From assembly GCA_036489905.1 (NCBI GenBank), contig DASXEX010000037.1, forward strand, positions 1 to 36,309: a stretch of DNA of 36,309 bases, in the 5' to 3' direction. Positions 11,545 to 32,330 of the stretch are shown here, piece by piece. How positions within the stretch are numbered: the first letter of the stretch is position 1; each line of letters opens with the position of its first letter. Both the position numbers and the translations under genes were made by a program. Below the pieces are notes generated by a model, which saw only the letters and a list, made by a program, of their open reading frames with translations, did no database searches and was not told where the DNA came from. The stretch comes from Candidatus Saccharimonadales bacterium (GTDB lineage: Bacteria; Patescibacteriota; Saccharimonadia; Saccharimonadales; UBA4665).

Positions 11545-11601
11545 TTAGAAACAGTATACAGCAACCTGTAAGTTGCTCGGCTCTTTCTACCCACACAGGT
11601 T

Positions 11602-15208: not shown

Positions 15209-15576
15209 TACAGAACCTCCGGCGCGAGTGAGATAATTTTGGCGTAGCCGCAGTCGCGCAGTTCACGCGGCACTGGCCCGAAAATGCGCGTGGCGCGTGG
15301 CAACTTGTCATCGCCGATGATAACGGCGGCGTTGTCATCGAACTTGATGGTCGAGCCGTCTTTGCGGCGAATCATATCCTTTGTGCGAACAACCACGGCT
15401 TTTACAACGGTTTTCTTTTTGACAGTGCCTTGCGGGCTGGCGTCTTTGACAGTTGCGACGATGGTGTCGCCGACGCGGGCATAACGCCGACGCGTGCCGC
15501 CGAGCACGCGAATGCACAGAATTTCCTTGGCTCCCGAGTTGTCACAAACATTCAGCCGTGATTCCTGCTGGATCAT
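15208..15576 (-). CDS. rplN: 50S ribosomal protein L14
   Basis: 122 aa, with [27 protein letters not shown]. Confidence 0.96.
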
Positions 15577-16001
15577 GACGCTTGCTCCTTTTTGCCAGAT
15601 GAGACAACTCTACGGTTTTTCTCATCGCGCGGGGCGTCGGAATAAATTCGCCGCTCCGGCTGCTCTTTTCCCCTACCCGTTTTGTCAGCAGTCTTAGATG
15701 CGGTGTGTTCTTTCGATTCGGTAATTTCTGCGAGCGGGTTGTCGGATTCGACGTGCTTGACGCCAGCCTTCTGTACGATTTGCTGCAATTTGAAATGCTT
15801 ACGTGCGCTGATTGGCCGCGTTTCGATGATCACGACTTTGTCACCTTCGGTGGCCTCATTTTTTTCGTCGTGCGCCATGAAGCGCTTCGTCACGGTGTAT
15901 TGCTTGCGGTATAACGGGTGCGTCAGGCGGACGTGCTCGGCCACGACAATGGTTTTGTCGGTTTTTTTCGAGGCCACGATACCGGTAATCATTTTGGCCA
16001 T
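15573..16001 (-). CDS. rpsQ: 30S ribosomal protein S17 with a ~60 aa C-terminal extension that reads through repeat copy 1
   Basis: 142 aa. The S17 core ends near ...[21 protein letters not shown] (about aa 82). There is no in-frame stop until the TGA that overlaps the rplN ATG (ATGA at 15573-15576). Confidence 0.85.
15599..15673 (-). repeat. Intercistronic two-hairpin repeat, copy 1 (before rplN, inside the rpsQ 3' extension)
   Basis: mRNA sense: GGGGAAAAGAGCAGCC-GGAGCGGCGAA-UUUAU-UCCGACGCCCC-GCGCG-AUGAGAAAAACCGUAGAGUUGUCUCAU. It shares both conserved flanks with the other four copies. Confidence 0.85.
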
Positions 16002-16201
16002 CAGTTTGTCTCCTTCATTAATTGCTCGCTGAGCACGGTTAGCATGCGAGCTAAATCTTTGCGCTTGCCGCGGACTTGGCGAACGTTTTGAACTTCGTTC
16101 AGGGCAGTGCGGCGCTTTAGCTCAGCGATTTCTTCACGCAATTTGGTGCTTTCGCTCGTGAGTTCTTCGGTCGAAAGCTTGCGGATTTCTACGATTTTCA
16201 T
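16001..16201 (-). CDS. rpmC: 50S ribosomal protein L29
   Basis: Start set at the ATG at 16199-16201 (MKIVEIRKLSTEEL...). The ORF-track start at 16210 is TTG. GGAGG lies upstream. Confidence 0.9.
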   Translation of the reverse strand: MKIVEIRKLSTEELTSESTKLREEIAELKRRTALNEVQNVRQVRGKRKDLARMLTVLSEQLMKETN

Positions 16202-16206
16202 GATGT

Positions 16207-16620
16207 TCAAGCCTCCTCTCTCACCAAGAACTTGGTTTTAACCGGCAATTTGTGAGCTGCGAGGCGCATAGCTTCGCGGGCGATTTCTTCAGTGACGCCG
16301 CGCATTTCGAACAGGATGGTGCCGGTGTGGATTTTGGCGACGAAAAATTCCGGATTGCCCTTGCCGCTGCCCATTTTCACGTCTTGCGGTTTGCGCGTTA
16401 CTGGCGTGTGCGGGAAAACGCGGATCCAAATTTTGCCGCCGCGCTTGATGTAGCGCGTCATAGCCTGGCGGGCGGCCTCGATTTGACGGCTCGTAATGCG
16501 CTCATTGCCTTGGGCTTGCAGCGCAAAATCACCAAACGCGATGTAATTGCCGCTCGTGGCTACGCCGCGGATCTTGCCCTTGCGCACTTTGCGGAATTTT
16601 GTCCGCTTCGGGAGTAACAT
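16207..16620 (-). CDS. rplP: 50S ribosomal protein L16
   Basis: Start trimmed to [15 protein letters not shown] (ATG at 16618-16620, with GGAGAGGTG 7 nt upstream). The upstream ATG in the ORF track lies inside repeat copy 2. Confidence 0.93.
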
Positions 16621-16647
16621 GCTACTGCACCTCTCCAATGTACGGAA

Positions 16648-16722
16648 ATGAGACAAACCTAACGGTTTTTCTCATCGCGCGGCGCATCGAAGTAAATTCG
16701 TCGCTCCGGCTGCTCTTTTCCC
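16648..16722 (-). repeat. Intercistronic two-hairpin repeat, copy 2 (rpsC|rplP junction)
   Basis: mRNA sense: GGGAAAAGAGCAGCC-GGAGCGACGAA-UUUAC-UUCGAUGCGCC-GCGCG-AUGAGAAAAACCGUUAGGUUUGUCUCAU. Confidence 0.9.
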
Positions 16723-16740
16723 TTAAAATTGCCAGAAGTG

Positions 16741-17373
16741 TCATGTCACTTCTCCTTTATAAATCCAAACTTTCACACCGATGATGCCGGCGCCCGGCCA
16801 GCGCGCACCGACATGTGCGTAATCAATGTCAGCTCGCAGAGTGTGCAATGGCACGCTGCCTTGCACTTCTTTTTCGCGGCGCGACATTTCGGCGCCGTTC
16901 AGTCGGCCTGCAACTTCGATACGAACACCTTTGGCACCGGCACGCATGGTAGCGGCTGCCGACGATTTGACCGCGCGGCGGAAACTCATGCGGCGCTCAA
17001 GCTGGTGCGCTATGTTCTCGGCCACGAGCTTCGCGTACAGCTCTGGCTTCTTAACTTCTTCGATATTGATACGAGCCGGCACGCCGTAAATTTTCTCAAC
17101 CGCAACTTTGAGCTCCTGCGCGCCCGAGCCGCCGCGGCCAATCACAACGCCGGCTTTGGCGGTCATAATAGTTACGGTCACGAGGTTTGGCGAGCGCTCG
17201 ATGTCAACTTTGTTGATAGCCGCACGGCTGCCAAGCTTGTCAGCAATCAATTTTCGCGTCGCCAAATCGTCGCGCAAATACTTGGCGTATTCGCGCTTGT
17301 CCACGAACCACTTGCTGCGCCAATCTTTGTTGACTTGCAGCCGCATCGAAATCGGATTAACTTTCTGACCCAT
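16741..17373 (-). CDS. rpsC: 30S ribosomal protein S3
   Basis: 210 aa, with MGQKVNPISMRLQVNKDWRSKWF and a KH domain. Confidence 0.96.
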   Translation of the reverse strand: MGQKVNPISMRLQVNKDWRSKWFVDKREYAKYLRDDLATRKLIADKLGSRAAINKVDIERSPNLVTVTIMTAKAGVVIGRGGSGAQELKVAVEKIYGVPARINIEEVKKPELYAKLVAENIAHQLERRMSFRRAVKSSAAATMRAGAKGVRIEVAGRLNGAEMSRREKEVQGSVPLHTLRADIDYAHVGARWPGAGIIGVKVWIYKGEVT

Positions 17374-17753
17374 TACTTTGACTCCTCGGATTTTTTAGCA
17401 GCCGGTTTTTTGGCGACGCGCTGTTCGCCGTCGACAACTACGCGGATGTGCGAAGTTTTCTTCTGGAACGGCAAGGCGCGGCCGTGAGCGGCCGGTTTGT
17501 AACGCTTCAGGCGCGGGCCAGGTGTAACGCTGATTTCGGTAATGTGCAAGGTATCCGGCTTGAAGTTGTGGTTGTGCTCGGCATTTGCGCGGGCGCTCTG
17601 CACGGCTTTTTTAACAGCGGTTGCCGAACGGCGCGGCGTGTGCTGCAAAATTACCAGTGCGTCATCCACGCTGCGGCCGCGCACCAGAGAAGCTACCACG
17701 CCGACTTTGCGCGGGCTCATGCGAACTCCCTTAGCGATTGCCTGTACTGCCAT
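17373..17753 (-). CDS. rplV: 50S ribosomal protein L22
   Basis: Start trimmed to [26 protein letters not shown] (ATG at 17751-17753, TAATG overlap with the rpsS stop). The longer ORF-track version overlaps rpsS. Confidence 0.93.
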   Translation of the reverse strand: MAVQAIAKGVRMSPRKVGVVASLVRGRSVDDALVILQHTPRRSATAVKKAVQSARANAEHNHNFKPDTLHITEISVTPGPRLKRYKPAAHGRALPFQKKTSHIRVVVDGEQRVAKKPAAKKSEESK

Positions 17754-18028
17754 TATTTCTTGCCTTTCGCGAGTTTGCCGCCGTGGCTGCGGAATTTGCG
17801 GGTCGGCGAAAACTCGCCGAGCTTGTGTCCAACCATGTTTTCGGTCACGAACACCGGCACATGGACTTTGCCATTGTGCACGGCGAACGTGTGGCCGACA
17901 AATTCCGGCGCAATGGTCGAAGCCCGCGCCCATGTCTTAATAATGGTGCGATCCTCGGCCGCGAGTACCGCCACTTTCTTGGAAAGCTTCGGGTCAATAA
18001 ACGGTCCTTTTTTCAGCGAACGACTCAT
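17753..18028 (-). CDS. rpsS: 30S ribosomal protein S19
   Basis: 91 aa, with [15 protein letters not shown] and [34 protein letters not shown] lies 7 nt upstream. Confidence 0.96.
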
Positions 18029-18180
18029 TCTGATTCTCCTGTAATATTGAAACCGCCGTTTTCAATCCGTTCTCTGCCTACTTCCTGTAATGCGGTAACT
18101 GTCCCATCGCCGAGTGTAACCGTGCCATTTTCTGGGTCGTCAGTGACGAGAATTGAACCAAAACCTAATCTTCCTCTCAT
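18025..18180 (-). CDS. Orphan 51-aa small ORF between rplB and rpsS
   Basis: Hand-translated, as it is below the ORF-track cutoff: [51 protein letters not shown]. The ATG lies 3 nt after the rplB TAA, with AAGAGGAAA upstream. Its TGA overlaps the rpsS ATG (ATGA). The ORF fills the whole 155-nt gap. Confidence 0.5.
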
Positions 18181-18183
18181 GGT

Positions 18184-19020
18184 TTATTTCCTCTTGGCCG
18201 CGTGGCGGCTTCTTACGATGAACTTGGTGGTGGATTTACGGCTGCGGGTTTTGTAGCCCAGGGTTTTCTGGCCCCAAGGCGTGCGCGGGTCTTTGCCGGT
18301 GCCGTGGCGTCCGCCGTCACCACCACCGTGTGGGTGATCGGCTGCGGCCATGACAACACCGCGAACACTTGGGCGAATGCCTTTGTGGCGGCTGCGGCCG
18401 GCTTTGCCGAGCTTGATATTCTGATGTTGCTCGTTGCCCAAAACGCCGAGGCTAGCCGTGCATTCGACATTAATCATACGGACTTCGCCGCTGGGCAAGC
18501 GGACTTGCGCATAGGCGTCTTCTTTGGCCATCAGCTGCGCGCTGTTGCCGGCTGAGCGGACCATTTGCGCGCCGCGGCCAGGCTGGAGCTCGATAGCGTG
18601 GATGGTGCTGCCAACCGGAATATTTTTCAGCGGCAAGCGGTTGCCGTTTTCGATTGGCGCTTCTTCGCCCGAGCTGATTTTCTGGCCGACTTTCATGTTT
18701 GCCACCGCCAAAATGTAATGGTACGTGCCGTTCGGTTCTTTGATGCGTGCGACGCGGGCCGAGCGGTTCGGGTCGTATTCGATGTGTTCGACAATTGCGG
18801 TTGTGCCGGACGCCAACTTGAAATTGACGAGCCGATAAAATTTGCGTGCGCCGCCACCTTGATGCCGCGTTGTGATGCGGCCTTGGTTGTTGCGGCCGTT
18901 GCCACGGCGTTTCGGTGCAAGCAAACTGCGCAACGGCTTTTTGGTCGTAATCATGCTCGTGTCCTGGCTCGTCATGCCGCGCCGCGCCGGAGTTGTCGGT
19001 TTATAAGCTTTGACCGCCAT
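18184..19020 (-). CDS. rplB: 50S ribosomal protein L2
   Basis: Start trimmed to MAVKAYKPTTPARRGM (ATG at 19018-19020, with GGGGGA 7 nt upstream). The ORF-track ATG at 19035 lies inside repeat copy 3. Confidence 0.95.
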   Translation of the reverse strand: MAVKAYKPTTPARRGMTSQDTSMITTKKPLRSLLAPKRRGNGRNNQGRITTRHQGGGARKFYRLVNFKLASGTTAIVEHIEYDPNRSARVARIKEPNGTYHYILAVANMKVGQKISSGEEAPIENGNRLPLKNIPVGSTIHAIELQPGRGAQMVRSAGNSAQLMAKEDAYAQVRLPSGEVRMINVECTASLGVLGNEQHQNIKLGKAGRSRHKGIRPSVRGVVMAAADHPHGGGDGGRHGTGKDPRTPWGQKTLGYKTRSRKSTTKFIVRSRHAAKRK

Positions 19021-19033
19021 TATTTGGTCCCCC

Positions 19034-19108
19034 ATGAGACAAACCTACGGTTTTTCTCATCGCGCCGGGCGCCGAAATAAATTCGGCTGCTCTGGCTGCT
19101 CTTTTCCC
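19034..19108 (-). repeat. Intercistronic two-hairpin repeat, copy 3 (rplW|rplB junction)
   Basis: mRNA sense: GGGAAAAGAGCAGCC-AGAGCAGCCGAA-UUUAU-UUCGGCGCCCGG-CGCG-AUGAGAAAAACCGUAGGUUUGUCUCAU. It contains a tandem AGAGCAGCC duplication. Confidence 0.9.
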
Positions 19109-19123
19109 TCATTAGTCCGGCAA

Positions 19124-19507
19124 TCATTTCTTGCTCTCCTTTTTGGCGCGTTTTTCAGCGGCTTTTTCCATGAGCTCGGCGGTTTTTTCGCTCTTGGCTT
19201 CGGCTTCTTCGACCGCGGCGAAAATTGGCAGACTGTCACCGCTTTTCAGTGTTACGTAAGCTTTTCGAGTGTCGCTTTGTCTGCCGGGAGTCGCGCGGCC
19301 GCCTTTGCGTATGGTGCGCTTGGCTTTGCCTTTGACGTTCGCCACGTTTACCCTTTCGACGGTCACTTCAAACTGTGCGGTTACGGCGCGGGCGACGCTG
19401 TGCTTGTTCGTACCCTTCGGCACGTCGAACACGTAGACGTTTTGGCTTTGGCTCAAGCCGTACGCTTTTTCGCTCATGCGTGGTTTCAGTGTCAAAGTTT
19501 TGTCCAT
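19124..19507 (-). CDS. rplW: 50S ribosomal protein L23 with a Lys/Glu/Ala-rich tail
   Basis: Start trimmed to MDKTLTLKPRMSEKAY (ATG at 19505-19507, TAATG overlap with the rplD stop). Confidence 0.9.
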   Translation of the reverse strand: MDKTLTLKPRMSEKAYGLSQSQNVYVFDVPKGTNKHSVARAVTAQFEVTVERVNVANVKGKAKRTIRKGGRATPGRQSDTRKAYVTLKSGDSLPIFAAVEEAEAKSEKTAELMEKAAEKRAKKESKK

Positions 19508-20145
19508 TACTTTTCGCCTCCGAGCCATGTGCTGACAACCTTCAACGAGTCTTGCGTAATAACAATCCGGTCGGCGTTGAGCGTGTCGAAAACGTTCACA
19601 TAATTTGCTTGCGTTACCTTTACGTCCTGCAAATTGCGGGCTGCACGATCAAGTTCCTCGGTTTTGTGTTCGACCACGAGCAGGACGCGCTTGCTTGCGT
19701 CAATTTTTGCGAGCAATTTCACGAGCTCAGCGGTTTTGGCTTCTTTGAGCTTGATGTTTTCGATGACCGTGATTTTATTGTCATCTGCGGCAAGGCTGAG
19801 GGCTTGGCGAATAGCCAGGCGCTTGGCCTTAACATTGACGCGTTTCGTATAATTTTCTTCGCCGGTAGGACCAAATGTGATGCCACCGCTACGCCAAATT
19901 GGACTGCGAGTGGAGCCGACACGCGCGCGGCCGGTGCCTTTTTGCTTCCAAGGTTTTTTGCCGCCGCCACGAACCAGGCCGCGGGTTTTCGTGGTTGCCA
20001 GATTTTCGCGGCCATTCGCCAGATATGCTGTATACGCGAGCTTGAGAAGTTCGTGGTTTTCGGGCGCAACGCCAAAGACGGCCTTATCGAGTTTGGCGGG
20101 TGTGGTAGCTTTCGTGCCGGTCTTGGTATACGTCGGAACCGCCAT
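19507..20145 (-). CDS. rplD: 50S ribosomal protein L4
   Basis: 212 aa, with RGGGKKPWKQKGTGRARVGSTRSPIWRSGGITFGP. AAGGAGA lies upstream. Confidence 0.95.
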   Translation of the reverse strand: MAVPTYTKTGTKATTPAKLDKAVFGVAPENHELLKLAYTAYLANGRENLATTKTRGLVRGGGKKPWKQKGTGRARVGSTRSPIWRSGGITFGPTGEENYTKRVNVKAKRLAIRQALSLAADDNKITVIENIKLKEAKTAELVKLLAKIDASKRVLLVVEHKTEELDRAARNLQDVKVTQANYVNVFDTLNADRIVITQDSLKVVSTWLGGEK

Positions 20146-20167
20146 TATTTCGTCTCCTTAACCCAAC

Positions 20168-20239
20168 ATGAGACAAACCTACGGTTTTTCTCATCGCGCG
20201 GAACGCGAAGTGAATTCGCGTTCCGGCTGCTCTTTTCCC
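20168..20239 (-). repeat. Intercistronic two-hairpin repeat, copy 4 (rplC|rplD junction)
   Basis: mRNA sense: GGGAAAAGAGCAGCC-GGAACGCGAA-UUCAC-UUCGCGUUCC-GCGCG-AUGAGAAAAACCGUAGGUUUGUCUCAU. Confidence 0.9.
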
Positions 20240-20266
20240 TAGCCAGTCTGGCAATTTCAGCGACCA

Positions 20267-20887
20267 TTACACCGCCTCCTTGAGTAAAACAATGCCTTTG
20301 CGCGGGCCGGGCACAGCGCCGGTGACGCCGATGACATTATTCTCGACATCAACCAATGCGATTTTCAAATGCTTGACCGTCACCCGTTCGTCACCCATTT
20401 GGCCAGCCATTTTCTTGCCCTTGAAAATATGCTGCGGGTACATTGAACCGATGGAGCCGGGCTTGCGGGTGTTGCCCTTGCCGCCGTGCGTTTTGCGCTG
20501 GCGCTCGAAGTTGTGGCGCTTGATGGTGCCGGCCCAGCCTTTGCCCTTGCTTGTGCCAGTCGCGTCGACTTCGTCGCCAACTGAAAAGACCTCGGCGTTG
20601 ATTTTGCTTCCAACTTTGAGGTCTTCGGAGATTTCGCTTGTGCGGAATTCGCGAATAATCTTCGGGAGCATACCGGCGACCTTAAAATGACCTGCTTGGG
20701 CTTTGTTCGTCCGAGCTTCCGAAGTTGTTTCAAATCCGACTTGGATGGCCATATAGCCGTCGCTCTCGGTATTCTTGAGCTGCGTCACGACGTTCGGGCT
20801 GCATGAAAGCAGCGTCACAGCCTGCACCGCACCGTCTTCTGCGATGGTGCTTGTCATGCCGACTTTTCGAGTAATGAGTGCTTTCAT
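20267..20887 (-). CDS. rplC: 50S ribosomal protein L3
   Basis: 206 aa, with MKALITRKVGMTS and GKGWAGTIKRHNFERQRKTHG. Confidence 0.95.
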   Translation of the reverse strand: MKALITRKVGMTSTIAEDGAVQAVTLLSCSPNVVTQLKNTESDGYMAIQVGFETTSEARTNKAQAGHFKVAGMLPKIIREFRTSEISEDLKVGSKINAEVFSVGDEVDATGTSKGKGWAGTIKRHNFERQRKTHGGKGNTRKPGSIGSMYPQHIFKGKKMAGQMGDERVTVKHLKIALVDVENNVIGVTGAVPGPRKGIVLLKEAV

Positions 20888-21028
20888 AGTTGTCTCAATA
20901 TAACGTTATTCTCTCCGCAAATGTGGCGAGCGTGACATAAAAATACTTGGCAGCTGGTGGTTTCTACCTCTGTTATTGGCAGACCTGCTTCAGCACACCA
21001 AGAACCAAAATTTATGAACTACCATCAA

Positions 21029-21058
21029 AGAATAACACGCACAAACAACCCCTGTCAA
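21029..21058 (-). promoter_or_regulatory. Candidate promoter re-starting transcription into rplC
   Basis: The minus strand reads TTGACA-N18-TATTCT within the 206-nt non-coding gap upstream of rplC. This would give a leader of roughly 135 nt. Confidence 0.3.
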
Positions 21059-21093
21059 CCTGTTGCAAATTCTACTGCGACTTTTTGTATGGA

Positions 21094-21840
21094 TCAGGCC
21101 GGTGCCGGAAAGGTCGCTAGCTGACCAGCGCCTAGTGCTTCACGTATAGTTCGTCGGGCGGCTTCGGATTCAGGCGTGATTATCTCCGTACCGATAGCGC
21201 TGGATGGCGCGTATTCGATCCCGAGTACTTCTGGCCTACCGCGCCAGCTCTGGGCGATAATTTCTGGTAGACGGGGATTTTCACGGACCTGGTGGTCGAC
21301 AATATCTAGCGTAGCACCTACTGCGCTGAGGCTAATGCAGCCAACTTTTTCTACATGGGGCATGTCGATTAATGTGCCATAACGGAAAGTGACATCCTTC
21401 CGGCCGAGAGCCGGATAGGCTGCTTCCAATACCGATCGCGCAGTAAGGAGCGAGTCGGCATCGGAAGTAATATCCTCAAACAAGAATACTCTGCGGGTCG
21501 CGTCGGTTATCGGTAACGAAAGCTGTCCTGCGGCAAGACACATGTTTCGAAAGCTGATTCCTTTCGCCGAAACGGGCATATAATGTATCGCACTGTCTTG
21601 TTGTAGGCTAACTGCATAGCCCACCAGACGGGCATTCGGGTCTAGACCAATGACAATATCGGGATCCGTTTCCTTAATGGCGGCAGCGATGGGTCTGCTG
21701 AAGCGAGGTATTTCACCCACACTGACGGGTAGATCGATGACTGGTGTAGGCATATGGTTTGCTCTGCGGTGTAAATTTAAAATCCGAGGCACACGTTGTT
21801 CTAAGCCGGTACTTTTGTTGCCGCTGGCACAATGAAACAT
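21094..21840 (-). CDS. Hypothetical protein, possible degenerate type-I phosphoribosyltransferase-like fold (cassette gene 3)
   Basis: 248 aa if started at the 21840 ATG, which overlaps the upstream gene by 40 nt. An alternative ATG at 21753 gives MPTPVIDLPV. RRVFLFEDITSDADSLLTA resembles a PRPP-loop pattern (hydrophobic run, acidic pair, small residues), and DIVIGLDPNARLVGYAVS precedes it. The motif is degenerate. Confidence 0.5.
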   Translation of the reverse strand: MFHCASGNKSTGLEQRVPRILNLHRRANHMPTPVIDLPVSVGEIPRFSRPIAAAIKETDPDIVIGLDPNARLVGYAVSLQQDSAIHYMPVSAKGISFRNMCLAAGQLSLPITDATRRVFLFEDITSDADSLLTARSVLEAAYPALGRKDVTFRYGTLIDMPHVEKVGCISLSAVGATLDIVDHQVRENPRLPEIIAQSWRGRPEVLGIEYAPSSAIGTEIITPESEAARRTIREALGAGQLATFPAPA

Positions 21841-22631
21841 CTATCCATAGCGCTCCTTACTAACGCCACCGCGGCCTTTCGCGGCCGGCGCAGGAAATGG
21901 TCGCTAATCTCATTACAAATCTCGATCCGTAATGAAGGAATGGCTTGCCTCACAGCTGCTATACCATCAGTCTGATTGCCTAGGCGAGTATCTTCTGCTA
22001 GCAATATAAGTCGTGGCGGCGAATTCCGGTTCTTTGTTTGTGCAGTTTGTAACATCGGTATTTGTCTGTCGAGTGGCGAAACGCCTTTTGATTCATCCAT
22101 AAACCCCTTCGTTACAAGCAGTGGGCGACCGCCCTGGCGGCGGTTACGGATCAGTGCGGCTACACCACCATGCCGAGATCCATAAGCCTTTACAATATCC
22201 CACTCTTCGGTGGTTAAATCATTCGCAATCCCTACGCTGTCGGCTTCAATGCGCTCCGCTGCCGATGTGAAGGCTGGCGTAATTCCTGTGATCTGCGTGG
22301 TGCGGAAATCTATGCCAGCATATGTCGCTACCAACAATCCGAGGGAGTGGGTTAATACATATGATGGCGGCGGATCGAGTTCTGACACGAATTCACTAAC
22401 CTTTCTTCCTTGCTCCGAGATAGGCGGCACAGCCACAGAGGTGTCCGTTACTTCGTTGAGCTGCGGCACATGGACGCGTATGCTGCCGGCGCTAGCCTCA
22501 GCCACTTCGTGCGCCGCTATTATGAATGGATCATTCCCATTAGAACCTAAGCCAGTAATACAGAGGATTTCTGTCCGCTCGCAAGCCATAAAATTAATTA
22601 GAAATATATCACCTTCTCTGAATTCGTGCAA
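21801..22631 (-). CDS. Alpha/beta-fold serine hydrolase (cassette gene 2)
   Basis: 276 aa. It has the strand EILCITGLGSNGND, a nucleophile elbow YVLTHSLGLLVA, an Asp candidate in RLILLAEDTRLG and a His candidate in ISDHFL. The start is uncertain: TTG at 22631 or ATG at 22589. There is no clear SD. Confidence 0.65.
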   Translation of the reverse strand: MHEFREGDIFLINFMACERTEILCITGLGSNGNDPFIIAAHEVAEASAGSIRVHVPQLNEVTDTSVAVPPISEQGRKVSEFVSELDPPPSYVLTHSLGLLVATYAGIDFRTTQITGITPAFTSAAERIEADSVGIANDLTTEEWDIVKAYGSRHGGVAALIRNRRQGGRPLLVTKGFMDESKGVSPLDRQIPMLQTAQTKNRNSPPRLILLAEDTRLGNQTDGIAAVRQAIPSLRIEICNEISDHFLRRPRKAAVALVRSAMDRCFIVPAATKVPA

Positions 22632-22634
22632 GGT

Positions 22635-22916
22635 TTAATACGTAATATAAACGCCGACTTGCGTCCAGAAACCGACGAACATTGCAACGAGCAAAATCGC
22701 AAACTCGATCTTGCGATCGATTTTGAAATGGTCGTGCGCCGCAAACAGCACGCCGATAAACAAGCCAATTGGAATAGGGATCTGTGTGGTGCCACCGGCA
22801 TTTTCGAGCCGAACCCACTGCGCGCCGACAATTAAATACAGCACAAGCTTCAGCAAATACACGCTGTCGAGCTCGGGGCCACCGGTTTTCCGCTTACGGC
22901 TTTTCGTTTTTGCCAT
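22635..22916 (-). CDS. Small basic-N-terminus membrane protein with three predicted TM helices (cassette gene 1)
   Basis: 93 aa. MAKTKSRKRKTGG is followed by the hydrophobic segments SVYLLKLVLYLIVGAQWV, IPIPIGLFIGVLFAA and IEFAILLVAMFVGFWTQVGVYI. There is no SD upstream. Confidence 0.6.
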   Translation of the reverse strand: MAKTKSRKRKTGGPELDSVYLLKLVLYLIVGAQWVRLENAGGTTQIPIPIGLFIGVLFAAHDHFKIDRKIEFAILLVAMFVGFWTQVGVYITY

Positions 22917-22981
22917 TGCTGTTATTCAATCACAAAAGCTTATGCTTTAGCAACTTCCAAACAGTGCATCTAGCTGCTCGG

Positions 22982-23017
22982 CACTTAAAAGCACCCGTGG
23001 GCGGGTGCTTTTAAGTG
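22982..23017 (-). terminator. Perfect 16-bp palindromic hairpin (bidirectional intrinsic-terminator-like) immediately after rpsJ
   Basis: The sequence is CACTTAAAAGCACCCG-TGGG-CGGGTGCTTTTAAGTG. It has a GC core (GCACCCG/CGGGTGC) flanked by A4/T4 arms, and it starts 15 nt downstream of the rpsJ stop. Confidence 0.6.
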
Positions 23018-23031
23018 AACGCAAAAGTCAC

Positions 23032-23361
23032 TTACATTTTGATTTCGACGTCGCAACCGGCTGGAAGCGATAAGTTCATGAGTGAGTCGATGGTTTTTGG
23101 GGTTGGTTCGAACACGTCGATGAGGCGTTTGTGGACGCGCATTTCGAATTGCTCGCGGCCTTTTTTGTAGACGTGCGGGCTTTTGACGACCGTGAACGTG
23201 CTGCGGCGGGTCGGCAAAGGAATCGGGCCAGCCAAGGTCGCACCGGTGCGCAGCGCCGTGTCAACAATTTGCTTCGCCGCCTGGTCGATGACTTTGTGGT
23301 CGTACGCCTTCAGGCGAATGCGAATGCGCTGCTTAACTTCTGGCTTCTTGGCTGCTTCCAT
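23032..23361 (-). CDS. rpsJ: 30S ribosomal protein S10
   Basis: 109 aa, with [24 protein letters not shown] and [38 protein letters not shown]. Confidence 0.96.
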
Positions 23362-23411
23362 GTGGCTGGTTCCGTTTCCTTTTAATGTGCGAGCTTTTTA
23401 AATCTGCTGGA

Positions 23412-24596
<1,185 letters not shown>

Positions 24597-24667
24597 TTTG
24601 GTTTAGACTCCTTGATTTAATTATTTTGCATGAGTTTAAAACAGAACTCACACGAGTTTCTGGGGGT

Positions 24668-24696
24668 AGTATAGAGAAATTTTTGCGAGTTGTAAA
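24668..24696 (-). promoter_or_regulatory. Candidate sigma70-type promoter for tuf
   Basis: The minus strand reads TTTACA-N17-TATACT, beginning right after the fusA stop codon and about 70 nt upstream of the tuf ATG. Confidence 0.5.
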
Positions 24697-24699
24697 GCG

Positions 24700-26787
<2,088 letters not shown>

Positions 26788-26803
26788 GTTTTAATCTTTT
26801 AAT

Positions 26804-27160
26804 TTAATCTTGTTTCTGGATTTGCGTAACACCGGTGCTTAAATCTACAACCTTAACGCTCTTAACTATGCAACATTCACTTTGCGGCAGTGTAGCCTGG
26901 CCATGTAAGGAATCGGGATGATTTGGTTGCCATGGCCCCGCCCCATCACTCGGCACGTCCCTTAAACCACTTCGTGTAGATGCTGTAACGGCTTCGGCCC
27001 GTTTTTCTAGTAAATGTACTGCCGGTTCGCTTACACCACTACTTCTGGCCATCTCTACGTCGGTCACAAGAGTTGCTAGATGCTGTTCTATAGAGCCGAA
27101 ATCATTCAACGGACAGAGCCTCCAACACTCAGGAGTAACCATTTGGCCGCATATTTCCAT
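26804..27160 (-). CDS. Orphan Cys-containing 118-aa protein inserted between rpsG and fusA
   Basis: It is the only long ORF in this gap on either strand and fills it completely. The ATG lies 5 nt after the rpsG TAG, with AGGAG 9 nt upstream. The N-terminus has C-x7-C-x3-C (CGQMVTPECWRLC) and there is a CC pair near the C-terminus. Codon choice looks AT-richer than in the flanking genes. I recognise no family. Confidence 0.55.
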   Translation of the reverse strand: MEICGQMVTPECWRLCPLNDFGSIEQHLATLVTDVEMARSSGVSEPAVHLLEKRAEAVTASTRSGLRDVPSDGAGPWQPNHPDSLHGQATLPQSECCIVKSVKVVDLSTGVTQIQKQD

Positions 27161-27165
27161 GATGA

Positions 27166-27645
27166 CTAGCTCCTCGCGAAGTGAGCGAAGGCGCGGTTGG
27201 CGTCGGCCATTTTGTGCACGTCTTCGCGTTTTTTAACGGCTGCGCCTTGGTTGTTGTAGGCGTCGGTGAGTTCGAGGGCGAGGCGGTCTTCCATGCTCAT
27301 GCCTTTGCGGGCTCGGGCGGCGGCCACGAACCACATCGTCATTAGGTGTTGCTGGCGCTGGCCTTTGACTTCGAACGGAATCTGGTAGTTGGCGCCGCCA
27401 ACGCGGCGGGAGCGCGTTTCGACTTGCGGCTGGACGTTTTTCATTGCTTGTTCGAAAACTTCGAGCGGATTGTCGACCTTCAGTTTGTTGGCCGCCTTTT
27501 GCATGCCGCCATACACCAGCCGCTCGGCAATTTGTTTTTTGCCGTCCTGCATCACGCGGTTGATGAGCCGCTGCACCTGCACGCTATTGTACAAACGGTC
27601 ACCCGGAATATCGCGCACGAGCGCTTTGGTTTTATGTCTAGGCAT
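27166..27645 (-). CDS. rpsG: 30S ribosomal protein S7
   Basis: Start trimmed to MPRHKTKALVRDIPGDRLYNS (ATG at 27643-27645, with GAAGGTGG 6 nt upstream). It is 159 aa and ends in ANRAFAHFARS. Confidence 0.95.
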   Translation of the reverse strand: MPRHKTKALVRDIPGDRLYNSVQVQRLINRVMQDGKKQIAERLVYGGMQKAANKLKVDNPLEVFEQAMKNVQPQVETRSRRVGGANYQIPFEVKGQRQQHLMTMWFVAAARARKGMSMEDRLALELTDAYNNQGAAVKKREDVHKMADANRAFAHFARS

Positions 27646-27856
27646 CTTGACCACCTTCATGGGATTGGGAGTCTGGTGATTCTTCAGCGGGAGGTAGCTC
27701 AACGTCAGTATTCCGATCAAGGAAAGCGCGGTCGTCTGAGCTCAAGCTATCGGGATCGCTAGCTGCCCGTTTACGTGCCTCGCGTAGACTATTCAAGTTG
27801 ACGGGAATTTCGCTTCCATTTCCGGTCTTCGGCACAAAGTCTTCGGGATATGGCAT
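27638..27856 (-). CDS. Orphan acidic 72-aa ORF inserted between rpsL and rpsG
   Basis: The ATG lies 1 nt after the rpsL TAA, with AAGGAGAG upstream. Its stop overlaps the rpsG start by 8 nt. The sequence MPYPEDFVPKTGNGSEIPVNLNSLREARKRAASDPDSLSSDDRAFLDRNTDVELPPAEESPDSQSHEGGQDA is Asp/Glu/Ser/Pro-rich and probably disordered. Confidence 0.45.
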   Translation of the reverse strand: MPYPEDFVPKTGNGSEIPVNLNSLREARKRAASDPDSLSSDDRAFLDRNTDVELPPAEESPDSQSHEGGQDA

Positions 27857-27857
27857 A

Positions 27858-28271
27858 TTACTTGCTCTCCTTTTTGGCGCCGTATTTGGAACGGCCTTGT
27901 TTGCGGTTGTTGACGCCTTGTAAATCTAATGCGCCGCGCACGATGTGGTAGCGGACACCTGGAAGGTCGCGGACGCGGCCGCCGCGGACCAAAACTACGG
28001 CGTGCTCCTGCAAGTTGTGGCCTTCGCCGCCGATGTAGGCCCAGACTTCGTGACCGTTGGTCAGGCGCACGCGGGCGACTTTACGAAGGGCCGAGTTCGG
28101 CTTCTTCGGCGTTTTGGTCGTGACCTTGACGCAGACGCCGCGCTTGAACGGGGACGGTTTTTCGTAGTTGCGGGTCTTCAGATTGTTGGTGACGCGAAGC
28201 AGTGCCGGCGACTTGGTTTTGCCGGTAAGTTTGGATCGCGGTTTGCGTACTAGTTGGTTAATTGTTGGCAT
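27858..28271 (-). CDS. rpsL: 30S ribosomal protein S12
   Basis: 137 aa, with [12 protein letters not shown] and [19 protein letters not shown]. Confidence 0.97.
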
Positions 28272-28356
28272 TTGCTGGATTGTCCTTGAAATTTTGCAGT
28301 AGGTATTGATTAATGACTCTTGTTCAAGTCACTATTACGTACTGCCCTTTTCGTTG

Positions 28357-28385
28357 ATTGTATCAGATTTACTCCTTGGCTGCAA
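28357..28385 (-). promoter_or_regulatory. Candidate promoter for rpsL overlapping the rpoC 3' end
   Basis: The minus strand reads TTGCAG-N17-TACAAT, with TG one base upstream of the -10 element (TGATACAAT). Confidence 0.3.
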
Positions 28386-31300
28386 TGGTTTCTTCAGCGG
28401 CCTTTGCGGCCTTGGCTTCTTCGATGTCGTCATCGCTCATGAAACCGGTGCCGACGGGAATCTTGCGTCCCAGAATGACGTTTTCTTTCAACCCGTACAA
28501 GTGGTCGACACGGCCGGATGTGGCGGCGCCGATGAGCACGCGCGTGGTGTCTTGGAACGACGCGGCACTCAGGAATGAGTCGGTGCTCAAACTGGCTTTG
28601 GTGATACCGAGCAACAGCTGGCTGTACTTGGCCGGCTGCTTGCCAGCGCGCGACAAAGCTTCGTTGGCTTCGACGGCCGATAGTTTGCTGACGGTGTCGC
28701 CAGTAACGAATTCGGTGTTGCCAGCGTCCTCAACTTGAACGCGGCTGAACATCTGGCGAACGATGGTTTCAAGGTGTTTGTCGGCAATGTTCTGTCCCTG
28801 GCTTGCAAAAATCTTGAGGATTTCGTTCATGATGTAGCGCTGTGTGGCTTCGACACCTTGCAGGTGCATGAGGTCGTGCAGGTTGATCGAGCCGTTAGTG
28901 AGCCGTTGGCCGGCCACGACTTTGTCGCCGTCTTTGACTAGCAGTTGCTTGAAGCCCGGGATTTCGTAGCGCACGACGCTTTGGCCGGCCGGTGTGATGA
29001 CGATTGCTTCTTCGCCGGCGACCTCGACCTTGCCGGCCATCGGTGCGACGAGCGGTTTACTGTTGTTTTCGTGTGCGGCGATGACGTCGCCGATGGCCAC
29101 ATCGCTACCACTGGCGACGCTAGCCTTCCGGCCGTTTAGCTCGAGGGTGACGTTTTCTTTTTCATGCGCCGCTATTTGCACGACGTAGTGTTCGCCTTCT
29201 TCCCAAGTTTTGGCTGTGCCGGCAATGTCGGTCAGGTACGCCTGGCTTTTTGGCGTGCGCGCTTCGAAAAGTTCTTCGACGCGGCCAAGCCCTTGCGCGG
29301 CATCATCGGCTACGACGGCACCGGAGCGGTGCTTGGAGTGAAGACTCAGCTGCGTGCCCGGCTCGCCGATAGACTGCGCGGCGATGACACCTATTGGCTG
29401 GTGCGCGACGACCAACTTGCCGGTCGCCGGATCAAGGCCGTACGATTTCTGCGGCACGCCGCGGGCCGAGGTGCAACTTAGGACGCTCATGATTTTTACG
29501 CCGTCGGTGGCGGTGTCAGCCTCAATCGCTTCGGCAATCTGCCCAGTGATGAGCTGACCTTTTTTGACGTGGTCCTTGATGGTTTCAGCGGCGAAGCGAC
29601 CATTCAGGCGAGAGGCATAGCTTGCACCGATTTCGGCGGCGTCGGCTCGCAAGCTGGCAAAGCCAGGATCATCGCCGTCGTTTTCGATCGTGAAGACGTC
29701 TTGGCTGACGTCGACCAAACGGCGAGTCAGGTAACCGGCGTCAGCGGTTTTCAGTGCGATGTCGATGAGCGCTTTGCGCGTGCCGCGGGAACCAGTGAAA
29801 TATTCGAGCGGGTCAAGTCCTTTGATGTATCCGGATTTAATCGGCAGCTCGATGGCACGGCCTGAGGCGTCGGCCAGCACGCCCAGCATACCGACGGCGT
29901 CTTTCATGTTTCGGATGTTGCCGCGGGCACCTGAATCGATGGCGATAGACATGGTGTTATTGCGGCCTTCCATTTGCTCGGCCAACATGTCCTGGACCTT
30001 TGTTTCGATCTTTGTCCAGTTTTCAACGGTCAGCCGGTAGCGTTCCTCTTCGGTAATGAAGCCCTGCTCGTATTGTTCGGAAATGGCGGCGGCGCGCTCC
30101 TCACCTCCGACAATAACCGCTTGCATACCTTTGATTTCGCTGAAGTCGCCCATGCCCATCGAAATGCCCGAGCGCGTGGCATAGTGGAAGCCGAGGTCTT
30201 TCAGTCCGTCGGCGATTTCGGCGGTTTTGTCCTGGCCGTATTTTCGGTACACTTCAGCCATGACTTTTTGCAGACGCTTCTTAGTCATCGGCTCGTCCTG
30301 GAACGGGAAGTCTTCGGGAAATGCTTCGTTGAAGGTTAAGCGGCCGAAGGTGGTGTGTCGGACTTCACCGCGGAACGGCACGCGCACACGGTCCTGAATG
30401 CTCAGCTTACCTGCGTAAAACGCCATGATGCATTCGTCCGGGCTAATGAATGGGCGCTCCTTTTGATTGGCGCTAGCTCGCTTGTAGGTGAGGTAATAGC
30501 AGCCGAGCACGATGTCTTGCTCAATGTGCAAGATGGGTGAGCCATCGGCTGGCTTGAGCAAGTTCTTGTTGGCGGCCATGATGTCGCGAGCTTCGGCTTG
30601 GGCAGCGTCAGATAGCGGCAAGTGGACGGCCATTTGGTCGCCGTCGAAGTCGGCGTTGAAACCTTTACATACCAGCGGATGCAGCTGGATGGCACGACCT
30701 TCGATAAGCGTCGGCTGGAAAGCTTGAATGCTCAAACGGTGCAAGGACGGCGCGCGGTTCAGTAGCACGTATTTGCCCTTGATGACTTCGTCGAGCGCGT
30801 CCCAAACTGCGGTTTCGCCGGTTTCGATCATGCGTGTGGCGTTGCGGATGTTGTGGGCTTCTTCGCGGGCGATGAGTTCGCCGATGACAAACGGTTTGAA
30901 GAGTTCAAGCGCCATCATCTTCGGCAAGCCGCATTGGTTAATTTTCAGTTCCGGACCAGCCACGATGACTGAACGGCCGGAGTAATCGACCCGTTTGCCA
31001 AGCAAGTTCTGGCGGAAGCGGCCTTGCTTACCCTTGAGCATGTCGCTCAAACTTTTCAGACGGCGGCGCTGGCCAGTTGCGGCGACGGCTCGGCCGGAAC
31101 GGGTCGAGTTGTTGTCGATCAACGCATCGACGGCCTCTTGCAACATGCGCTGTTCGTTGCGGCGGATGACTTCGGGCGCGTTCAAGTCCATCAATTTTTT
31201 GAGTCGATTATTACGGTTGATGACGCGGCGATATAGGTCGTTCAAATCGCTTGTGGCAAAGCGTCCGCCGGTCAGTTGCACCATCGGGCGCAGGTCGGGC

Positions 31301-32214
31301 GGAATCACCGGCAGGACCGAAACGCACATCGAGTTCGGCTCGATGCCGGCACGCTCCATACTTTCGAGTAGCCGTAGCCGCTTCATCAATTTCTTGTGGC
31401 GCTGACCTTTGGCAGTTTCGGCCTCTTCGCTCAAACTTTTGATGAGCTCTTTCAGGTCAATTTCGTCAAGCAACAGCTTCACTGCCGCGCCGCCCATGCC
31501 GACGCGCACGAGTCCTTGCAGTTCATCCGGCATGCTGCGATATTCGGCTTCGCTGAGGAGCCGGAATTTTTCAAGACTGGTAAGCTGTTCCTTGAGCTGC
31601 TCGAATTCCTTGGTGACCCCTTCCAGCTCTTTGGTCTGCATTTCGGCCAGAGCCTTCACGTTCGATTCCTCTTTGTTTGCCTCGTGCTCGTAGCGAAGCT
31701 TGATAGCTTCTTTGGCGGCGGCGAATTCGGCTTCTTTGTCGGCGAGCATTTGGTCACGCTTGGCAGTGTCTACAGAAATAATAATGTAGCTGGCAAAGTA
31801 GGCGACGCGTTCGAGGTTTTTGACGGTCATGCCAAGTAGCAAGCCGATGGCCGAAGGCGTGCCGTGCAGGAACCAAATGTGCGCCACCGGCACGGCCAGG
31901 CTAATGTGGCCCATGCGTTCGCGGCGGACGATGGACTTGGTGACGAGTTCGCCGTTTTTGTCGACGGCGGCTTCACGGCTGCGGACGCCTTTGTATTTGG
32001 CGTCGTGCGGGTTAATGTCCTTGACCGGTCCGAAAATCCGCTCGCAGAACAGGCCGTCGCGCTCCGGCTTTTGCGTGCGATAGTTGATGGTTTCCGGCTT
32101 GGTTACTTCGCCGTGGCTCCATTCCAAAATGTCAGCCGGGCTGGCAACCGCCAAACGCACTGCGTCGAAATCGGCAATGTTTGTGCCACTTGTACCGTAA
32201 GAATAGCGTCGCAT
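28369..32214 (-). CDS. rpoC: DNA-directed RNA polymerase beta-prime subunit
   Basis: 1281 aa, with the catalytic motif NADFDGDQM. Confidence 0.98.
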
Positions 32215-32245
32215 CGTTTAAGCCTCCTCTTCGTCATTACCAAGT

Positions 32246-32317
32246 ATGAGACAAACCTGACGGTTTTTCTCATCGCGCGGGACGCGAAGTGAATTCGCGT
32301 CCCGGCTGCTCTTTTCC
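32246..32317 (-). repeat. Intercistronic two-hairpin repeat, copy 5 (rpoB|rpoC junction)
   Basis: mRNA sense: GGAAAAGAGCAGCC-GGGACGCGAA-UUCAC-UUCGCGUCCC-GCGCG-AUGAGAAAAACCGUCAGGUUUGUCUCAU. Confidence 0.9.
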
Positions 32318-32330
32318 TTTACTGCAACCA

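Follow-up and report, generated by a model that had tools for sequence, protein, structure and literature searches.

What are five look-alike, two-hairpin segments doing between the genes of a ribosomal protein (r-protein) and RNA polymerase (RNAP) gene cluster? The question is raised by a stretch of 36,309 nucleotides (nt) from a Candidatus Saccharimonadales bacterium (contig DASXEX010000037.1), referred to here at its full length as the window. A first-pass annotation had noticed the segments and had proposed that they are a functional RNA, acting as a processing or stabilising site, as an operator for the downstream cistron or as a ribozyme. Our analysis favours, with moderate confidence, the reading that they are copies of a non-autonomous mobile repeat specific to Saccharibacteria, which in operons would be a translated passenger. 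A built-in regulator of the r-protein/RNAP operons is not supported, and an RNA-level function in tRNA or rRNA leaders is possible.

Window copies, empty sites and target duplications

The five copies and their parts are given below, with covariance model scores in bits.

15599-15673 (-): copy 1, S17/L14 junction; 5' block 15658-15673, hairpin 1 15631-15657, GCGCG 15626-15630, hairpin 2 15599-15625; 82.1 bits
16648-16722 (-): copy 2, S3/L16 junction; 5' block 16708-16722, hairpin 1 16681-16707, GCGCG 16676-16680, hairpin 2 16648-16675; 90.2 bits
19034-19108 (-): copy 3, L23/L2 junction; 5' block 19094-19108, hairpin 1 19066-19093, GCGCG 19061-19065, hairpin 2 19034-19060; 87.1 bits
20168-20239 (-): copy 4, L3/L4 junction; 5' block 20225-20239, hairpin 1 20200-20224, GCGCG 20195-20199, hairpin 2 20168-20194; 87.8 bits
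32246-32318 (-): copy 5, rpoB/rpoC junction; 5' block 32304-32318, hairpin 1 32279-32303, GCGCG 32274-32278, hairpin 2 32246-32273; 80.8 bits

The presence of five similar copies, in one orientation and between cistrons, was confirmed by a 19-mer count, by the covariance model and by the Pfam identity of the neighbouring genes, which agree with one another. The 19-mer ACGGTTTTTCTCATCGCGC matched the window five times (0.06 matches expected by chance), always on the + strand, which is mRNA sense for the minus-strand genes, and a 14-mer of the 5' block also matched five times with zero mismatches. The covariance model, run with filters off, found exactly five copies in the 36-kb window (80.8-90.2 bits), all on the minus strand, and besides these no score exceeded 15 bits. 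A weak match at 11557-11621 (8.2 bits) contains GGAAAAGCGCAGCAAAUAAAACC and is perhaps a decayed copy, perhaps chance. Pfam identified the genes upstream of copies 1-5 as S17, S3, L23, L3 and RpoB, and the genes downstream as L14, L16, L2, L4 and RpoC; the distance from the element to the next start codon is 13-31 nt, the spacing already reported for these copies.

The architecture is also as first described. In mRNA sense, (A)GGGAAAAGAGCAGCC is followed by hairpin 1, GCGCG and hairpin 2 (AUGAGAAAAACC-GUA-GGUUUGUCUCAU), and the core of about 75 nt comprises AGGGAAAAGAGCAGCC, a variable hairpin 1, GCGCG and an invariant hairpin 2. Lineages differ in that some carry a short extension beyond this core, as at copy 3:

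19109-19123 (-): lineage-specific 5' extension of copy 3, TTGCCGGACTAATGA

This extension, seen earlier as an extra upstream block common to copies 3 and 4, is indeed present at copy 4 (20240-20263 contains TTGCCAGACTGGCTA) and occurs as well at the L22/S3 copy of a relative, locus L121 (CTTGCCGGACGAATAA). Hairpin 1 of copy 3 contains a tandem AGAGCAGCC duplication. Folding of the sense strand produced both hairpins in four of the five copies (z -2.8 to -5.8); hairpin 1 of copy 1 is weak in sense (z = -0.8) and stronger in antisense.

Comparison of element-bearing loci revealed that the occupied r-protein/RNAP junctions vary by species. Copies were found at S12/S7, L3/L4, L4/L23, L23/L2, S19/L22, S3/L16, L29/S17, S17/L14, L24/L5, L5/S14, L17/next gene and rpoB/rpoC. 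In an element-blind sample of 80 operon loci picked from metagenomes by L2 homology alone (557 kb), 20 copies were present in 14 loci and the other 66 loci were without a copy. The closest relatives, L121 (91% L2 identity) and L122 (87%), have plain, overlapping and empty junctions at L3/L4, L23/L2, S3/L16 and S17/L14, and L121 carries its copy at L22/S3, a junction that is empty in the window. This patchy presence, with 66 of 80 operons empty and the relatives' junctions empty, speaks against the proposal of a dedicated intercistronic operator, processing site or ribozyme of r-protein/RNAP operons.

Comparison of filled with empty sites showed that two things were gained, the element and a repeat of the junction sequence. 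On either side of each window copy stands a version of the same junction piece, 17-31 nt with Shine-Dalgarno (SD) sequence, stop codon and ATG, and the two versions have diverged. The duplicated pieces are as follows.

20264-20281 (left, AAGGAGGCGGTGTAATGG) and 20142-20159 (right, AAGGAGACGAAATAATGG), (-): L3/L4 duplication; single in L121 and L122 as AAGGAGGCnAAATAATGG
16741-16761 (left, TATAAAGGAGAAGTGACATGA, ..YKGEVT*) and 16618-16642 (right, TACATTGGAGAGGTGCAGTAGCATG, ..YIGEVQ*), (-): S3/L16 duplication; single in L121 as TATAAGGGAGAGGTAGTGTAACATG
19124-19141 (left) and 19017-19033 (right), (-): L23/L2 duplication; single in L120, L121 and L122 as AAGGAGAAGAAGTAATGG
32329-32359 (left) and 32212-32238 (right), (-): rpoB/rpoC duplication; the two copies are diverged, with indels between them
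15692-15713 (left, probable and diverged) and 15573-15591 (right), (-): S17/L14 duplication; single in L122 as AAGGAGGAGCAGGCATCATGA

For 20 of 114 family copies the flanking direct repeats lie beyond the 99th percentile of a null made from mismatched pairs. The longest duplication is 54 nt with one mismatch (L079), followed by 44 nt (L029), 43 nt (L090, L104) and 35 nt (L091), with others of 32, 30, 26 and 21 nt; overall the target duplications are variable, from 17 to 54 nt, and the left duplicate commonly ends exactly at an ATG, a CAT or a stop codon. The statement that the element has no target-site duplication was thus wrong. The absence of terminal inverted repeats was borne out, as GGGAAAAGAGCAGCC at the 5' end shows no complementarity to GGTTTGTCTCAT at the 3' end and no such pair appears in the inverted-repeat list. 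An autonomous parent was sought as separated 5' and 3' blocks, which were never found apart in our data. From the empty sites in relatives, the junctions that differ by species and the flanking duplications, and with no parent seen, we conclude that the comparative sequence evidence identifies the element as a duplicative, non-autonomous mobile repeat.

The distribution of hairpin-1 sequences bears on the upkeep of the copies. One hairpin-1 sequence is commonly shared within a genome (window copies 4 and 5, three copies in L014, L012 with L065, and L036 with L053), and the same junction in different genomes carries different hairpin-1 classes. Apart from the window's own contig, an exact-protein look-up of L14 gave a single contig, which has the same layout. 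The sharing of hairpin-1 classes within genomes favours turnover or gene conversion over selection on each copy, although it is not proof.

Family structure, orientation and settings outside operons

When one genome per species was scanned with the invariant 19-mer, at least 117 stretches matched. Among the matches listed, 112 loci are full copies and five are chance 19-mer matches without the rest of the element, and nearly all carriers are titled Candidatus Saccharibacteria, Saccharimonadales or Patescibacteria. The few carriers with other labels (e.g. L064, L096, L114) have Saccharibacteria-like r-proteins and are taken to be mis-binned. The family amounts to more than 100 copies from more than 80 Saccharibacteria genomes. 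Viral contigs scanned with the 19-mer gave 0 matches.

Analysis of 117 distinct copies revealed a near-unchanged 15-nt 5' block, GCGCG and hairpin 2, together with a hairpin 1 that differs widely. The length of the element is 72, 73, 74 or 75 nt in 27, 39, 17 and 30 copies, respectively, and outside operons it varies by 1-nt steps. In an alignment of 71 sequences hairpin 1 has 149 double-change cells against 54.6 +/- 7.5 in shuffled alignments (0 of 500 shuffles reach 149), and controls with slid pairing were far lower than the true pairing; the observation that hairpin 1 varies yet keeps pairing therefore holds family-wide. Its first pair is C-G, G-C or A-U (61, 23 and 16 copies), its second pair G-C or A-U, and its third position a conserved A.C mismatch in 64 of 107 copies. 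Hairpin 2 has no covariation in the same alignment, its only changes being G.U (12 cells, with A.C in 0 cells). The G.U versus A.C test of strand is contradictory, since hairpin 2 favours the sense strand and the conserved A.C of hairpin 1 favours the antisense strand. Rare variants have the tip of hairpin 2 swapped for other stems, or a GAAG loop or two-hairpin junction in place of hairpin 1. The element has a sharp 5' boundary, with 88% of copies reading A|GGG there, and the flanks carried with the core vary. Decayed copies are few (about 10, against about 120 intact copies in the same loci).

An optional third module, nAGGCGAAGCCGUWAA with a GCGAAGC-type mini-hairpin, lies 3' of the element in about 20 copies (carriers include L005, L021, L039, L041, L058, L064, L079, L084 and L093). 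In dispersed copies this mini-hairpin was considered as a 5S-leader spacer, a finding that would have spoken for ends set by RNA, and rejected, as it is a subfamily module that continues as GUWAA.

The annotation had not recognised any named family, and Rfam 15 agreed: nothing reached the gathering score in the whole window, and nothing relevant was found at E <= 10 in 15400-20500, ribozyme classes included. Literature searches found no account of this repeat family. A lysM-TM7 RNA (RF03005, 89 bits) was seen at 1683-1834 (-) of L026; Rfam covers TM7-specific motifs of this kind and not the element.

The claim that operon copies are co-oriented with transcription was strengthened. At operon junctions 48 copies are sense and none antisense (28 tight-junction copies plus the element-blind sample, 20:0). 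Gene context in the fetched loci was assigned with aragorn and a simple codon-usage caller, which recovers the minus-strand gene order of the window. Both neighbours are sense in 55 copies, divergent in 17 (mostly upstream of tRNAs), both antisense in 15 and convergent in 11, and about 24% of copies genome-wide oppose the downstream gene. Copies in both orientations, which had been named as the sign of a DNA-level repeat, are thus found genome-wide but not at operon junctions. Among the 13 copies with clear flanking duplications, five have an opposite-strand gene on their 3' side; with both orientations present among clearly duplicated copies, the sense bias looks like a post-insertion filter.

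The antisense strand offers a candidate for this filter. It presents hairpin 1 followed by GCUGCUCUUUUCC, and copies 4 and 5 are the top two terminator-like matches in 18 kb, copy 3 being a weaker match; on the gene (minus) strand no terminator-like match occurs at any of the five copies. The description of the element as not terminator-like was correct for the sense strand and fails for the reverse complement. Since the conserved A.C is a G.U on the antisense strand, that strand folds more stably in 93 of 120 copies, with a mean advantage of 2.2 kcal/mol. Antisense copies have the 3' end of the element 4-24 nt from the stop codon of the opposite-strand gene, a place where a terminator would do no harm. 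The terminator-like reverse strand probably filters orientation.

Outside operons the settings bring in the alternative that survives best, namely that the element is a host-beneficial, cis-acting RNA module: a processing signal, 5' stabiliser or insulator for tRNAs, 5S, 23S or cistrons, or a tuner of translational coupling through unwinding of the two hairpins. We regard it as unlikely, though the following observations favour it. Between 27 and 32 copies sit 3-11 nt upstream of a same-strand tRNA, and a single copy (L069) is antisense to the adjacent tRNA. The tRNAs for Arg, Met, Pro and Lys bear the element repeatedly, in several species. Sigma-70-like promoters lie 20-45 nt upstream of the element at tRNA units, which makes the element part of the pre-tRNA leader and not the promoter itself. 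The element lies in sense 14 nt upstream of 5S rRNA in L041 and L066, and a minimal form whose hairpin 1 is a GAAG loop (AGGAAAAAGAGCAGC-GAAG-CGAUGAGAAAAAACCUUUGGUUUUGUCUCAU) lies, likewise in sense, about 10 nt upstream of the 23S 5' end in L049. The scarcity of decayed copies and the G.U-only changes of hairpin 2, which favour the sense strand, also fit this alternative. The view of the element as a functional RNA accordingly stands in part: it is structured, its hairpin 1 covaries and its unpaired blocks are invariant. The part that does not stand is the role as operon regulator, as presence is patchy and the operon copies are evidently translated.

Several results weigh against a mobile passenger and have to be set beside this alternative. 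No target duplication was detectable at the tRNA-leader copies. The tight placement before tRNA, 5S and 23S goes beyond what a passenger requires, and 32 of 66 tRNAs in the loci, which were themselves selected for the element, carry a copy, one antisense only. Tight spacing of this kind without detectable duplication is the best argument for an RNA-level role, which it suggests. Orthologous L5/S14 copies in four species have an invariant core and compensatory hairpin-1 changes next to diverged coding sequence, so that a passenger needs frequent gene conversion or turnover, or else selection acts on each copy. Duplications that are long and variable, in an element that has no terminal inverted repeats, match no standard bacterial transposition mechanism. 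Finally, the gene calls in fetched loci rest on the codon-usage caller of this analysis.

The host-beneficial module is nevertheless hard to reconcile with the facultative presence of the element, since it is missing from 66 of 80 operons and from roughly half the tRNAs of the sampled loci, and close relatives differ. It also does not account for the two orientations of the clearly duplicated copies or for the better folding of the antisense strand, and translation through operon copies would melt the fold. Hairpin-1 classes shared within a genome and differing at the same junction point to turnover or conversion and not to site-specific selection.

The rRNA settings extend into the genes themselves. 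Sense copies occur inside 23S rRNA variable hairpins (L110 twice, L103, L049), often beside a degenerate inverted copy; the same L049 23S gene that has the minimal form upstream has an inverted pair at a variable hairpin. One site in L110 is of helix-25 type, and L080 and L110 provide empty sites for comparison. In L002 and L056 the 23S copies are antisense. Of 66 rRNA insertions in Saccharibacteria, a survey of 2024 described 64 as short and unclassified (PMC11270868). In the loci read, the repeat family is the source of at least some such short rRNA insertions. Other neighbours are housekeeping genes, among them alaS (repeatedly), dnaE, clpB, thrS, recG, yidC and dnaN/recF.

Two further candidates for a role in leaders were tried and rejected. 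The element as promoter has no -35/-10 arrangement inside, the sigma-70-like promoters of tRNA leaders lying upstream, and the resemblance of UGCUCUUUU to boxA is on the non-transcribed strand of tRNAs/rRNAs and was treated as coincidence. The promoters of the element-tRNA units (L001-L117) have a TAnAAT -10 box, with a recurrent motif (A)CCCCTGTT directly preceding or following it.

It has also to be asked whether the element could be a bacterial counterpart of the short interspersed nuclear elements (SINEs), in which the two-hairpin RNA, produced in bulk as leader of pre-tRNA and pre-rRNA transcripts, or a single strand of the same sequence, is copied by an enzyme into new sites with long, staggered target duplications, or else a domesticated, portable RNA-processing or protection signal set right before tRNAs, 5S rRNA, 23S rRNA and cistrons; we consider this pair of possibilities improbable. 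The likeness to eukaryotic SINEs and to the IS1634 group is in one feature, long target duplications of variable length; SINEs are also tied to small-RNA gene leaders. In its specific form, the released leader of a pre-tRNA or pre-rRNA, or a transcript that stops at the antisense terminator, would be reverse-transcribed into staggered nicks. Long and variable duplications of 17-54 nt without terminal repeats or an autonomous DNA parent are consistent with such retroposition, as are the sharp 5' boundary with variable carried flanks, the concentration of copies in highly transcribed leaders, and the agreement between the 3' extras of dispersed copies (3-13 nt) and the element-to-tRNA spacers (3-11 nt). 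However, k-mer enrichment common to tRNA-leader 5' segments and the 5' extras of dispersed copies is weak, with no shared motif, the 3' mini-hairpin is a subfamily module and not a 5S-specific spacer, and template switching during replication would yield the same pattern. We find retroposition very unlikely.

Predicted translation across the operon copies

Analysis of reading frames revealed that each window copy of the mobile repeat lies inside an open reading frame (ORF): mini-ORFs of 35-40 codons over copies 2-5, and an extension of S17 over copy 1.

20145-20267 (-): mini-ORF over copy 4, 40 amino acids (aa); ATG overlaps the L3 stop (TAATG) and TAA overlaps the L4 ATG
19020-19127 (-): mini-ORF over copy 3, 35 aa; ATG overlaps the L23 stop (ATGA) and TAA overlaps the real L2 start at 19020
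16622-16744 (-): mini-ORF over copy 2, 40 aa; ATG overlaps the S3 stop (ATGA), stop 1 nt before the L16 ATG
32218-32331 (-): mini-ORF over copy 5, 37 aa; ATG overlaps the rpoB stop (TGATG), end 3 nt before the rpoC ATG
15573-16001 (-): S17 ORF, 142 aa with the S17 domain at residues 7-72; frame continues through copy 1 to a TGA overlapping the L14 ATG

The mini-ORF bridges the junction because the duplicated piece holds SD, stop and ATG, so that the ATG of the left duplicate overlaps the upstream stop and the stop of the right duplicate overlaps the next start. At S17/L14 the left duplicate has lost its stop codon, and S17 reads on through copy 1. The Joint Genome Institute (JGI) annotation of the same contig calls these ORFs. 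The longest ORF of L2 starts at 19035, inside copy 3; the real ATG is at 19020 and gives a 278-aa L2, as in the JGI call.

Of the three frames, the 3' block of the element closes one only (TGA, TAG) and the 5' block closes none. In 25 of 28 tight-junction copies the hairpin-1 segment has a length of 1 mod 3, and the split by length mod 3 elsewhere is 12/11/6 in tRNA leaders, 9/16/4 in antisense copies and 13/13/8 in the rest. A length of 1 mod 3 also holds for 15 of 18 copies in the element-blind sample, and the remaining three likewise have an open frame. Copies with nested hairpin-2 expansions also keep an open frame, and in the orthologous L5/S14 copy of four species the indels of the 5' extension are all multiples of 3. 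On these length data the reading frame appears to be under selection only at copies between coupled cistrons, from which it is predicted that ribosomes read across the element; the operon copies are evidently, as far as sequence can tell, read through. Such read-through argues against efficient self-cleavage or a stable protein-RNA operator at operon sites.

This bears directly on the proposal of a new, small self-cleaving ribozyme that cuts polycistronic or precursor transcripts beside tRNAs, rRNAs and cistrons. A covarying variable stem that brackets many invariant unpaired nucleotides is a ribozyme-like pattern, and the element is located where RNA 5' ends arise. Against this, bridging ORFs with the frame kept through indels mean that the mRNA must stay intact for ribosomes, variants that lack P1 or are expanded still have an open frame, the approximately 45 invariant positions are far above the need of a small ribozyme, and the Rfam comparison matched no ribozyme class even at E <= 10. 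A hammerhead-like CGAUGAG..AAA was rejected on inspection, the U of CUGAUGA being absent and no stem joining the two parts. A ribozyme is accordingly a shade less probable still than retroposition.

The mini-ORF as the real feature, a conserved small protein or leader peptide between cistrons (M..REKSS..RDEKNRRFVS..), is scarcely credible: the ORFs are open, coupled on both sides and frame-conserved in every operon copy, and the JGI gene caller predicts them, but hairpin-1 residues vary as the palindrome dictates, the 1-nt length steps outside operons leave no fixed frame between the two conserved blocks, and the copies in tRNA leaders and rRNA cannot code, so that the peptide is not the point of the element. 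Searching proteins with the copy-4 mini-ORF was uninformative: besides the window's own ORF, a single ORF of 37 aa matched.

Proposed mechanism, neighbouring inserts and known systems

New copies of the mobile repeat arise by copy-and-paste insertion, with 17-54 nt of the target duplicated, and copies are located in spacers that are transcribed: at the junctions of operon genes, in the leaders of pre-tRNAs, between rRNA genes and in variable hairpins of 23S rRNA. The rest of the mechanism could be as follows. The maintained hairpin, together with the invariant blocks, may serve as recognition module for a putative trans-acting copying enzyme, and gene conversion or turnover would keep the copies of one genome alike. 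Inserted copies would be passengers. Duplication of SD, stop and ATG, with selection on frame, would let ribosomes translate straight through, and this read-through would preserve the translational coupling of neighbouring r-protein/RNAP genes. In reverse orientation the transcript would contain a stable GC hairpin plus GCUGCUCUUUUCC; being terminator-like, such copies would be purged from operons and tRNA leaders and would survive just downstream of stop codons.

Other inserts were seen in the window and in related operons. At the L2/S19 junction (18025-18180, -) a 51-aa ORF fills a 156-nt insert, its stop overlapping the S19 ATG; in relatives this junction is mostly 12-15 nt, and unrelated sequences of 110-580 nt are inserted there in about 20 of 76 loci (411 nt in both L120 and L121). 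For small ORFs this looks like a hot spot of insertion. Between S10 and L3 (21094-22916, -) there are three genes (248, 276 and 93 aa), of which the 93-aa gene recurs there in many relatives. Between L15 and secY (10708-11621, -) there are short ORFs of 91, 88 and 79 aa, the 88-aa ORF matching methyltransferase Pfams; these are probably gene fragments. Loci L176, L193 and L138 have unrelated palindromic inserts of 100-160 nt at many r-protein junctions of one operon, with an ATGA start at the upstream stop and their own GGAG Shine-Dalgarno ending within a few nt of the following ATG. One purine-arm/pyrimidine-arm family is present six times in L176; the families in L193 and L138 are different ones. 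Judging from these loci, junction-bridging palindromic inserts appear to be a general feature of Saccharibacteria genomes. The two-hairpin element is the most widespread and most conserved insert family seen in this analysis.

Saccharibacteria genomes are among the smallest and most compact bacterial genomes. Yet the stop/start overlaps of their most essential operons are colonised by the element and by at least three unrelated palindromic families. Tolerance through an SD-stop-ATG duplication that yields an in-frame, coupled mini-ORF would be an apparently undescribed solution. The family may serve as a phylum-specific marker and would account for spurious gene calls of 35-40 aa in TM7 genomes. 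It also raises the mechanistic question of which enzyme makes target duplications of 17-54 nt without terminal repeats. If the fold does act in pre-tRNA or pre-rRNA leaders, it would be a new RNA-processing element.

Comparison with known systems revealed partial likeness to several. The REP/BIME repeats (REPINs) of enterobacteria and pseudomonads are likewise short, structured, high-copy repeats of transcribed spacers, operon junctions included, with compensatory hairpins, inverted pairs (here inside 23S rRNA) and orientation-dependent terminator- or stabiliser-like potential. However, a REP is a single palindrome of 20-40 nt, whereas the element has 72-75 nt with two hairpins and invariant unpaired blocks of 15 and 5 nt. 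REPs are linked to RAYT (Y1) transposases, have no long target duplications and are untranslated, whereas the element has a strong sense bias and duplications of 17-54 nt. REPs are defined (PMC3733652) by a GTAG or CGTC tetranucleotide at the foot of the palindrome; the only GTAG of the element spans the loop and 3' arm of hairpin 2 (AAACCGTAGGTTT) and so is not 5' of a stem.

Rickettsia palindromic elements (RPEs) are also small palindromic repeats of a reduced genome that are tolerated through in-frame translation, here predicted from the mini-ORFs and the S17 extension. RPEs, however, lie within genes, to whose protein they contribute a peptide segment, whereas the element usually gives a separate coupled mini-ORF; the two are unrelated in sequence and occur in different phyla. 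Miniature inverted-repeat transposable elements (MITEs), such as Neisseria Correia, ERIC and RUP/BOX, are non-autonomous and multi-copy, with empty sites in close relatives as found here, and are co-transcribed with neighbours whose transcripts they can alter. The element differs from them in having no terminal inverted repeats, in its variable duplications of 17-54 nt versus a fixed 2-10 bp, and in that no transposase-bearing parent was seen. Palindromic elements derived from IS200/IS605 differ in that the element has duplications and only an A at -1 conserved (88%), with no fixed tetra- or pentanucleotide. SINEs are unlike it in that it has no poly-A tail or internal Pol III promoter, and IS1634-type elements are unlike it in having terminal inverted repeats and encoding a transposase.

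Among RNA-level systems, an intrinsic terminator would need a GC hairpin directly followed by a U tract, and none of the five window copies gives a terminator-like match on the gene strand; an r-protein autoregulatory leader is unlike the element, which has no fixed operon position, leaving 66 of 80 loci and the relatives' junctions empty. The intervening sequences (IVS) of 23S rRNA and the short Saccharibacteria rRNA insertions (PMC11270868) resemble the minority of copies at 23S variable hairpins, where pairing with an inverted copy gives an extended helix; unlike them, the element is also dispersed in protein operons and tRNA leaders. On its sequence features the element is best described as an undescribed family among the small dispersed bacterial repeats, notable for its long target duplications, its probably translated bridging ORF and its preference for tRNA and rRNA leaders. 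It can be likened to REP, RPE and MITE but differs from REP and MITE in their defining features and from RPE in that it usually gives a separate mini-ORF.

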